IMG/VR virus record: IMGVR_UViG_2695420863_000007
Origin: a virus
Lineage: Duplodnaviria; Heunggongvirae; Uroviricota; Caudoviricetes
Length of the DNA stretch: 18,526 bases
Reading direction: 5' to 3' (one strand)
Below, piece after piece: positions 15,001 through 18,000 of the stretch. A program made the position numbers. Numbering within the stretch: the first letter of the stretch is position 1; each line of letters opens with the position of its first letter.

Positions 15001-18000
15001 CCATTCTATGACTGCGCCACAGGGCGTAAGGCCGAGTTTTCCTGAGGGTATGCTGATACTCGTTGATCCGGCCGAGCCGGTAGAGTCTGGGGATTTCTGC
15101 GTGGCTTCTGCAAATGGTGATTCAGAGGCAACGTTCAAGAAGTATGAGAAGGATGCAGGGGTTAGTTACTTGGTTCCATTGAATCCGGCATACAGAACCC
15201 TGGACTGCGATCACACATGCCGCATCATAGGCAAGGTAGTTAAGGCTCAGTGGCCTGAAGAGACGTTTGGATGATGGATGGTCGCAGAGATGCTCGTAGA
15301 GCATACAGCGATGCAGGAGAATTTATGGCACTTAATTTAGAAAGAATATCTTTTATAACCCCATTTGATAGCAGCGAAGAACCCAACCAACCGACGCTTA
15401 ATTTTACATGCAATGAATTTCCTGCGCGGCTATCGATTGATTTCAGGGTTGGTATGATCGGGTTGAAACCAAATTCAAGATATAATTTGGGTATTATGGT
15501 AATCCCCGCGCACCTAATTATAAAAAAAGGTGAGGAAATTCAATTCCCTGACGGCTCTTCGGAATCAGTTTCACTTTTCATCGATACGAAAGATAGCCAT
15601 TTTGAAACAGGGGTTGGCGGACAGGTAATAGTAACATTGAAAGAAATTAGGGTCCCAGCTAAAGGGCTGTATAGTGTTATAGGGATATTGCAAGATAATG
15701 AAGACCCTAAAAATGAACTTCATAAAAATGAATCATTTTTCACCGTAGAGCTATTATGAGTGACGACAGTAATTTAAATAATCATGGAAAGCAAGACACC
15801 AACATATCTGAAAGCCGGAGGTTGAAGGTTGTTGGCGGTTCCGATTTTGAGGCTGAATTTGATAATTCTCCCACCAAGGTGCAAAATAATTACATAAAAC
15901 CGCCACAAACGGAGGAAGAAGTGGGAACGATCAGCAGAGAGGAACTTGATGCTCGCTTAGCTGCTAATAAAGCAGAGATGGAGTCTATTGCTTCTTCCAT
16001 TAGGACTGACATGGCTCTATCTCGTGAAAGCGTTAATGTCCAATTTGCATCACTTAATGCAGCCATAAGCTCTCTATCGTCCAAGATCGATGGAAAGATG
16101 GATAGCGCTGCTGGCGATATAAAAGCAATTAATGGGAGATTCGAAGGAATTCAAGGACAAATAACAGGGGTTAATACCGCAATTAGTGGTGTTCAGTCGG
16201 GTATTTCTATACGATTAGCCATTTTTAGTGTCATTATCGCTGTAATAGTTGCGATTCCCGGGCTGGTATCAGCTTTAAAGTCAGACCACGCACCTTTGCA
16301 ACAGCCTTCCACTTTGCAAGCGCCGCCACAAAATACCCAGCCAACAGACAACAAAAAAATCACTCCCCAGCATTAACGCATTAACCCGGCCTCAGCGCCG
16401 GGTTTTTTGTTGCCTGCACATAACTATCAGGACAGCACCTGCCAGCCAGCCCAAGCCTCTGATTAAATTACTATAATTCTTAATACAACTCCCATATCCC
16501 GCCATCTCGTCACCACCTACTTCGCTCGTTTTTCGAACTTTTCAGCACACCATCCTGCTGTTTCCCCCGCCTTAAGTAAGCAAACCCATCGCGGGGGAAA
16601 CTATTTACACAAAAAAATCATACACATAACGTGTCACACCCTTATTTTACACATTTTGTGATTGACCATTAAATCACAATATGTGACTATTATTTCCATC
16701 AGCAGGACGCTGGTAGCCAAACGGAAAAGATTGGCAGGCTCTTTAAACAACGTCGAACACTCGACTACGTGGCTGAAAAGCCAGATCACCCAACCACATA
16801 AGCTGTGGGATGCAATGCCGAAGCAACCGTCTCAGGAGGAGCTTCGAGATTGCATCGCCAAAGTTTATTCGGGAGGAATCTATGTCCAGAAAAACAGAAT
16901 TTAAAGGCACCGCAGCTTCTCGCCGTAGAGCTCGTCGCGCAAACCTGCAAAGTCAGGAGTCGATTAGCTCCGACAAGCTACACAGGCCAACCCCTTCACG
17001 AGTGGTCTTGCAATGCAAGCGCAAACCAGCAATGAGAGCAGAAGTTATAACTCTGACAACGTTGACCAGAAAATATGAAGGTTCAACTTGTCTTCCAAAC
17101 GTAGCCATTTACGCTGCAGGCTACCGTAAATCCAAACAACTGACAGCAAGATGACTTGTGTTGGTCGCCAGAAAATGAAATTAGGCAGCAAACCACTTAT
17201 TTGAGAGGAATTAATATGTCATCAATCCGCTTAACTACGAGAATGAAAGAGGAAATCGCTCGTAACGCTTTAATTAAGTCCGGGGTGTTCACTGAACTTG
17301 AAGAAGTAACAAAGTTAAAGAACCAGCTTGCACTTGACGCCAGAGTTATTGCGTTTGGCGGGAAAAAGAAAACCGAAGAAGTGGACCAGCTGGCATCAAA
17401 GTTAATGGCTGCAAGTGAGGAACTTCAAAAGCTGGGATGTTCATTTTACTCATGCGATGTCAGTTCATGTTCGATTTATCTGACTGTATCTGGAAGAAGG
17501 GTTGGCTGGCATTCATACGGAAAAGACGGCAACGGTGAAGATATATTGCTCCCTACCCCCGACAAAGATAAATGCATGTTTGACGCAGAACACAAAATAA
17601 CAAAAAGGTTTGATGAAATCTGCGCATTGCAACAAAAACTTGAAGCCAGGAAAAAGGATATAGAATCAAACGTATGGGCTGCTTTGAACTCAGTCACAAC
17701 AGTTAAGCGACTTATTGAAGTTTGGCCTGAAAGCAAAGAGTTGCTACCAAAAGAAGCAGATAAAGCAAGTGCAGCACTTCCTGCTTTACGGGTAGAAGAT
17801 TTGAATAAGATGATTGGACTTCCTTCCGAGGCCGCATAATCGGCCTTTATTTTTGGCATAAACAACAGAATAAACACTGCACTGTGTATTCATTCCAACG
17901 AGTGAATACACGGAGCAATGTCGCTCGTAACTAAACAGGAGCCGACTTGTTCTGATTATTGGAAATCTTCTTTGCCCTCCAATGTGAGGGCTTTTTTATA

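Follow-up and report, generated by a model that had tools for sequence, protein, structure and literature searches.

An Nmad5-family gene directly after N in a lambdoid prophage: a widespread accessory gene and a tentative candidate for host interference

In bacteriophage lambda, the interval between the antitermination gene N and cIII is occupied by ral and sieB, a variable, dispensable and exchangeable cargo; SieB is a membrane protein. Another point of comparison is provided by the DNA mimics of the T7 Ocr/ArdA type, which are first-expressed, dispensable and non-enzymatic early proteins with strongly negative surfaces. The family closest to the gene described here is Nmad5, for 'nucleotide modification associated domain 5' (Pfam PF18757), whose predicted role is attributed to Iyer et al. 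2013 in a study of the Tmn system (PMC11846954). We analysed the IMG/VR virus record IMGVR_UViG_2695420863_000007, a lambdoid prophage of 18,526 nt whose + strand corresponds to lambda's leftward direction; this whole stretch is referred to below as the window. Its gene at 17216-17839 (+ strand), in the position of ral and sieB, is almost certainly a functional single-domain member of the Nmad5 family. The gene is translated, constrained and dispensable, and we tentatively regard its product as an early protein acting on a host component.

The family assignment rests on a match over nearly the entire protein, residues 4-203 aligning with profile positions 1-206 of 206 at an E-value of 1.1e-68 and 231.9 bits (gathering cut-off 27). 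The protein also matches PHROG 1965, of unknown function (E 3e-81), and the DNA of the gene is 100% identical to that of the Escherichia coli SCU-104 gene encoding RefSeq WP_000095078, which bears the name 'Nmad5 family putative nucleotide modification protein'. The first-pass annotation of the window, made without database searches, had proposed an unknown gene devoid of recognisable motifs. Neither description can be kept: Nmad5 is a named and widespread family, and public catalogues already list gene, protein and family alike, so that no new element is involved. An exhaustive profile search returned 2667 Nmad5 clusters at 50% identity, almost all of them stand-alone proteins of about 200 aa; among the best 150 of these clusters, nearly all measure 190-230 aa and show a single matched stretch, as the window protein does with its 207 aa. 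About 190 listed homologues contain Nmad5 only, without any domain fusion. The window protein shares with the family its length, its single domain, the N-terminal M-x-x-R-L-T and the C-terminal SVTT-K-[KR]-L---WPE ... LN--IGLP motifs, and differs only in its context, where no nucleotide-modification cassette is found. This neighbourhood of modification enzymes is a contextual and not a sequence criterion, so that membership in the family stands.

Other searches added little to this picture. The Pfam search of the window protein found no family besides Nmad5 and no DNA-binding domain even at E-values up to 1, PADLOC defence models gave no match and NCBIfam no meaningful one. Two 'DNA polymerase' labels were encountered, on PHROG 15487 (E 0.042) and on a 267-aa Pseudomonas phage 'DNA polymerase A' of the BFVD database (E 0.026); they were set aside as a likely propagated mis-annotation. 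The literature search retrieved four papers that name Nmad5, none with a biochemical assay of any member, and no mention of PF18757, phrog_1965 or WP_000095078. Nothing identifies the gene as a known housekeeping-type phage protein, the one finding that would have spoken against the anti-defence or host-takeover role suggested at first pass.

The gene comprises 207 codons plus a stop and starts with an ATG at 17216, preceded by the Shine-Dalgarno sequence GAGAGGA at 17203-17209, 7-13 nt upstream. A longer frame opening at a TTG (17156) was rejected: family N-termini of the form M-x-x-R-L-T line up with the ATG, which is taken as the true start because homologues begin there. Coding constraint was assessed on 80 related loci, all E. 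coli lambdoid loci from IMG/VR, of which 75 gave a gap-free full-length alignment corresponding to 53 distinct DNA alleles, one of them with an internal stop. Over 51 alleles, each compared with the window, the mean nonsynonymous divergence (dN) is 0.032 and the mean synonymous divergence (dS) 0.173, a ratio of about 0.19; because of this ratio the gene can be described as translated and held under purifying selection. The earlier call of a well-initiated 207-aa open reading frame (ORF) at these coordinates is thereby upheld by its ATG, its Shine-Dalgarno sequence and its substitution pattern.

Upstream lies an N-type antitermination gene (16882-17154, + strand) encoding 90 aa with an arginine-rich segment, MSRKTEFKGTAASRRRARR, and matching Pfam PF25694 N_peptide (E 1.6e-31) and PHROG 271 'anti-termination protein N-like'. 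Only a 61-nt spacer (17155-17215, + strand), which carries the Shine-Dalgarno sequence, separates its stop codon from the Nmad5 gene. The latter therefore occupies, as had been suggested, the ral/sieB slot: in the pL operon no other gene comes between it and N, and cIII, kil and gam lie downstream of it. A candidate nutL site, read from the sequence at 16737-16783 (+ strand), consists of a boxA-like GGCTCTTTAAACAA (16737-16750), a spacer hairpin and a boxB-like TGGCTGAAAAGCCA (16770-16783). Its counterpart nutR, at about 14243-14292 on the - strand between cro and cII, has CGCTCTTTGTAACAA and TCGCTGAAAAGCGA as boxA and boxB. Both sites have a common layout of boxA, spacer hairpin, 'TACG' and boxB, and their boxB stems, TGGCT...AGCCA in nutL versus TCGCT...AGCGA in nutR, differ by a compensatory G-C to C-G exchange around the same GAAA(A) loop. 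This pair therefore places the Nmad5 gene within the N-controlled pL operon.

In lambda, tL1 limits N-independent transcription. In the window, a simple scan for hairpin-type terminators detected none between N and the Nmad5 gene, and the RNA of the spacer folds no more stably than shuffled sequence (z -0.71). The scan did report a terminator-like hairpin, GAGGCCG-CATAAT-CGGCCTT, at 17828-17847 (+ strand), which overlaps the Nmad5 stop codon and is followed by the T-run TATTTTTGG up to 17856. This putative terminator is kept with at most 4 mismatches in all 80 related loci. Because the gene precedes the first terminator-like hairpin and none separates it from N, it is probably co-transcribed with N as an immediate-early product, without antitermination.

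Comparison of the related loci shows how the gene moves. Homology to the window starts at 17152, in the N stop codon, in 44 of the 80 loci, which makes this point the commonest recombination joint, and extends to at least 17869 in every one of them. Leader, Nmad5 gene and hairpin thus travel as one module, since the hairpin is kept throughout and homology usually begins at the N stop and always runs beyond 17869. The module is found 12-137 nt downstream of its upstream neighbour, which is a lambda-type N, a P22 gp24-like N, one of three other N types, an HK022 Nun-like gene, a Ral-like ORF or a Cys-rich, zinc-finger-like ORF of 88 aa. The repressors of the same loci are 33-100% identical to that of the window, and the distance from Nmad5 to cIII varies from 729 to 3360 nt. 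The joint at the N stop codon is in itself a clean case of modular exchange at a gene boundary. The Nmad5 gene shares with ral and sieB the position between N and cIII and the quality of variable, dispensable, exchangeable cargo; the Pfam search indicates no sequence or family relationship to either. An identity with Ral, a protein of about 66 aa, was considered and discarded, the only Pfam match being to Nmad5. In several related loci, a separate ORF of 64-66 aa (MTTTIDKNQWCGQFKRCNGC...), which we take to be Ral-like, lies directly upstream of Nmad5. Because this Ral-like ORF adjoins Nmad5 as a gene of its own, the Nmad5 gene is not a Ral replacement.

The gene is present in 211 of 5426 complete E. 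coli genomes (about 4%). An 801-bp query comprising the gene and its flanks matches 321 phage records, including Shiga toxin (Stx) phages of the Stx1a and Stx2a types, mEp235, HK542, Kapi1 and PhiR12, and tblastn finds the family in 239 phage records. Among the matches listed, the hosts are all proteobacterial: Pseudomonas, Vibrio, Escherichia, Salmonella, Bordetella, Klebsiella, Edwardsiella and Dinoroseobacter. In Stx2a phage Stx2_716 (LC616058, about 1089-3025), an IS3-family insertion sequence (IS) with a 108-aa orfA and a 296-aa orfB on the opposite strand separates about the first 36 codons from the rest of the gene. About 48 Stx2a records show this partial match as well, over residues 34-207, and the gene appears to be inactivated in that lineage. 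It is dispensable, because an IS element splits it in Stx2_716 and because the Dhillonvirus homologue discussed below can be deleted.

The genomic contexts of the family are diverse. N4-like phages carry Nmad5 between ThyX/ThyA and a gp42-like exonuclease plus primase, with gaps of 3-10 nt, and in M6 it adjoins a thymidylate-synthase-like gene and a DNA polymerase. It follows the helicase-primase in eiAU, is flanked by a helicase and a Holliday-junction resolvase in ECO1230-10, has RecE and a replication initiator close by in Vibrio PvVp04 and heads the erf/yqaJ operon of a P22-like contig. Elsewhere it is flanked by terminase and portal (ZRG1) or by tail tube and tape measure (metagenomic contigs). 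On the opposite strand, Nmad5 is found inside head/tail clusters of Vibrio VchM-138 and P23, Dhillonvirus SM_A8 and SM_S22 and an E217-like contig. This scattered placement is the signature of a mobile accessory gene, or moron, and not of a core function.

Two AlphaFold models, built with 25 and 67 sequences, are in agreement, with predicted local distance difference test (pLDDT) values of 83.1 and 87.3 and predicted template modelling (pTM) scores of 0.68 and 0.73. In both, three long helices (8-72) precede a beta hairpin region (86-100) and a long return helix (127-158); residues 163-183 form a small helical C-terminal part, which a disordered linker (183-193) joins to a short terminal helix. 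Overall, the models predict a helical hairpin of elongated shape that carries a small beta insert at one of its ends. Conservation across 67 diverse members is concentrated at residues 5-21 and 153-203 and comprises R5, L6, A18, W170, P171, E172, L196 and N197, of which only A18, W170, P171 and E172 are invariant. The most conserved motif is S159-V-T-T-V-K164-R165-L-I-E-V-W170-P-E172, and a flexible tail, LPAL-V-DLN--IGLP, is conserved as well. In the DSSP assignment of both models, no isolated bridge residues other than 5 and 162 occur near the conserved termini; we therefore read the conserved N-terminus (R5-L6) as packing, at the end of the hairpin away from the beta insert, against the core C-terminal motif to form, in the models, one patch. 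No His/Asp/Cys/Lys constellation of the enzyme type is conserved across the 67 members; because such catalytic-type residues are not conserved, we think that the Nmad5 protein works as a binder and not as an enzyme.

Structure searches returned no described relative. In the PDB, searches by sequence (single sequence and a 57-sequence profile) gave only chance coiled-coil matches at E 0.02 or worse, and Foldseek, run with both models (pLDDT 83 and 87), found no solved structure below E 0.1. Its best candidates, helical hairpins of flagellin and stalk-like type (best E 0.24, TM score < 0.3), were rejected as generic long-helix similarity. Against BFVD, Foldseek recovered other Nmad5 or unnamed phage proteins, together with the one labelled 'DNA polymerase A'. 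Of the checks proposed by the first-pass annotation, the homology search gave an answer, Nmad5, whereas the fold search found no solved relative. The protein is neutral, with an isoelectric point of 6.76, a net charge of about -0.3 and 32 acidic versus 32 basic residues, and its maximum 19-residue Kyte-Doolittle hydropathy of 1.03 indicates no transmembrane segment. It would resemble the Ocr/ArdA mimics in being an early, dispensable and non-enzymatic protein that is expressed first; a DNA mimic of that type was nevertheless dismissed, the window protein being neutral where those proteins have strongly negative surfaces, and no structural match supporting it. A helix-turn-helix (HTH) in SVTTVKRLIEVW was also considered; with a spacing one residue short of the canonical G-V-S-x-x-T-V-x-R and no HTH profile match, it survives as no more than a weak idea.

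The reading that we prefer, while placing it a little short of an even chance, is that of a non-enzymatic, dispensable early accessory protein that acts on a host component, in host interference or counter-defence. The protein would be produced alongside N within the first minutes after infection or induction, antitermination not being needed. Its conserved basic/aromatic patch and its tail would then engage a host component, which might be a defence protein, or else a DNA-metabolism factor or a nucleic acid common to Proteobacteria. This engagement would benefit the phage through host interference or counter-defence, and not through modification of DNA bases. The candidate anti-defence or host-takeover function put forward at first pass agrees with the dispensability of the gene, its moron-like scatter, its probable immediate-early expression and the genetics of Tmn; its defensive part is an inference only.

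The Tmn genetics comes from a distant homologue. Yamashita et al. described two Dhillonviruses that escape Tmn by the same nmad5 substitution, K216E in SM_A8 and K296E in SM_S22; reverting it restored sensitivity to Tmn and introducing it conferred escape, and cloning of nmad5 was tried without success, with apparent toxicity (PMC11846954). Within T-D-K-K-L-I-K-A-W-P-E the substitution affects the second K, which aligns with R165 of the window protein in T-V-K-R-L-I-E-V-W-P-E, inside the core motif and directly before L166, which is invariant in this alignment. The Dhillonvirus genes (SM_A8, CDS 5047-5811; SM_S22, CDS0006) belong to the same family, have terminal motifs in common with the window protein and are, like the window gene, non-essential accessory genes. 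They differ in a middle insert larger by about 50 residues and in their location, on the opposite strand in the head cluster of a virulent siphovirus, whereas the window gene follows N in a temperate phage. Because the escape phenotype of the substitution is not reproduced by deletion, these data lend modest support to a binding protein: a charge reversal that is recurrent and specific, affects a conserved residue on the surface and behaves unlike a deletion would more often reflect a changed interaction surface than a loss of catalysis, as for a binder able to engage defence components.

Several observations weigh against host interference or counter-defence. The nmad5 deletion is viable but gives no escape from Tmn, so that the substitution may have conferred a new function, and Yamashita et al. 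take Nmad5 for a factor that is sensed or that modifies (PMC11846954). The Dhillonvirus homologue, the only source of experimental data, shares no more than about 23% identity with the window protein. The hairpin at the stop codon, detected by a simple scan, has a fold energy of -13 kcal/mol with a z of only -1.44, and one of its stem pairs is broken and not compensated in 8 loci. Virulent phages of the N4-like and M6-like types carry Nmad5 co-directional and tightly packed in replication and nucleotide-metabolism modules near ThyX/ThyA-like genes, a placement that fits a role in DNA metabolism equally well.

This last point leads to the main rival explanation, an accessory factor with a part in DNA replication, in recombination or in nucleotide metabolism, which would serve as a non-catalytic scaffold, a DNA-binding adaptor or a protector of replicating DNA. 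The contexts in N4-like phages, M6, eiAU, ECO1230-10, PvVp04 and the P22-like contig speak for it, as does the pL operon itself, with gam in the window and bet and exo in related prophages. The conserved basic R5, K21 and K164 and a T-V-K-R-L-I that by eye only is loosely reminiscent of an HTH recognition element would suit nucleic-acid binding. We nevertheless hold this explanation to be unlikely: the gene is dispensable, patchy and often on the opposite strand in structural modules far from replication genes, the Pfam search above detected no DNA-binding domain in the protein, and early operons also hold anti-defence genes, so that position does not discriminate. That Nmad5 is a genuine component of DNA base modification, as enzyme or specificity subunit, is suggested by its Pfam and RefSeq names and by M6 and SN1-like Pseudomonas phages, where the gene abuts a thymidine-hypermodification cassette of aGPT-Pplase, kinase, radical-SAM and pyridoxal-phosphate (PLP) enzymes (PMC9476957). 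In the window, the ORFs of at least 60 aa searched against Pfam and PHROG include no aGPT-Pplase, kinase, hydroxymethylase or radical-SAM gene, and the only modification gene is an ordinary Dam methyltransferase of the nin region, about 6 kb away in another operon. Most carriers, among lambdoid, Vibrio, Dhillonvirus and Edwardsiella phages, likewise have no annotated hypermodification genes nearby; with catalytic-type residues not conserved and a fold that matches no known enzyme, this explanation becomes very improbable. More improbable still is a superinfection-exclusion or defence gene of the sieB/rex type protecting the lysogen, although the gene occupies the slot where lambda carries sieB and an unspecified 'NMAD' domain figures among the defensive domains predicted by a machine-learning model (PMC13092281). 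With pL repressed in the lysogen the gene should be silent, and no promoter-like site of its own was found by a scan insensitive enough to have also missed pL. The protein has neither the membrane segment that SieB possesses nor a PADLOC match, and the family is common in strictly virulent phages (N4-like, YuA-like, Dhillonvirus).

An extended form of the preferred host-interference reading can be formulated, which we consider doubtful as it stands. Nmad5 would represent a large and structurally new class of immediate-early effectors that disarm host immunity or divert it, membrane KAP-NTPase systems of the Tmn kind being one example, by means of the conserved N-terminus and the K/R-L-x-x-x-W-P-E patch, and the 'nucleotide modification' label would be a misnomer born of genomic neighbourhood alone. 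The practical value of the analysis lies in a corrected annotation and a sharper hypothesis. The functional name of the family is supported neither by sequence, nor by predicted structure, nor by most genomic contexts, and is probably misleading. The position after several N types and Nun and across many immunity types, together with the one published genetic link to Tmn, makes it reasonable, and cheap, to include the gene in screens for anti-defence or host takeover. If Nmad5 were indeed a counter-defence effector, a widespread new fold would be added to the repertoire, which matters for the engineering of therapeutic phages.

The remainder of the window follows the lambdoid plan. Downstream of Nmad5, the next conserved gene of the operon, which bounds the variable slot, is cIII (18064-18204, + strand; PHROG 550), followed by kil (18197-18340, + strand) and by the start of gam (from 18414, + strand). 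The cIII product measures 46 aa, as compared with 54 aa in lambda, and its gene overlaps the kil start by 8 nt; the cIII thermoregulator RNA element (18051-18109, + strand; Rfam RF01804, 88.5 bits) is intact. The minus strand carries cro, cII, O, P, the nin region, Q and the lysis genes. A LexA/cI-type repressor is encoded at 14627-15274 (+ strand). The place that rexA and rexB have in lambda, from the repressor gene to pL, is taken in the window by two overlapping ORFs on the + strand, at 15271-15759 (162 aa) and 15756-16376 (206 aa), followed by a terminator-like hairpin found by the terminator scan (16383-16404). They match PHROG 5893 and 5820, of unknown function, and have no Pfam or PADLOC match. 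The second is weakly similar to MakA/MakE, subunits of alpha-pore-forming toxins (E 0.007-0.015), and its C-terminal part includes a hydrophobic stretch, LAIFSVIIAVIVAIPGLVSAL. This pair is a candidate exclusion or abortive-infection system expressed in the lysogen.

Downstream of Q (5859-6482), a 616-aa protein with DUF1737, SASA sialate-O-acetylesterase and DUF6645 domains is encoded at 2473-4323 (- strand); it is presumably NanS-p-like, as in Stx phages. In the interval between its gene and Q (4324-5860) no tRNA gene is present and none of the ORFs reaches the length of an Stx A subunit; a 172-aa ORF at 5104-5622 has no Pfam match. Rfam matches at gathering level, to C4 antisense RNA, its a1/b1 targets, isrK and sRNA-Xcc1, occur at 10029-10227 and 9441-9524 (- strand), just upstream of three antirepressor-type genes: ORF6N (9667-9975), P22AR (8727-9401) and Ant/KilAC (7930-8658). 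The arrangement has the look of an antirepressor module under P1/P7-style antisense control that was inserted in the nin region. The nin region also carries, on the - strand, an ORF with a Lar restriction-alleviation domain (11357-11800) and a Dam-family N6-adenine methyltransferase (10430-10984); because of these two genes, the rightward operon of the phage already provides two recognised devices against restriction.

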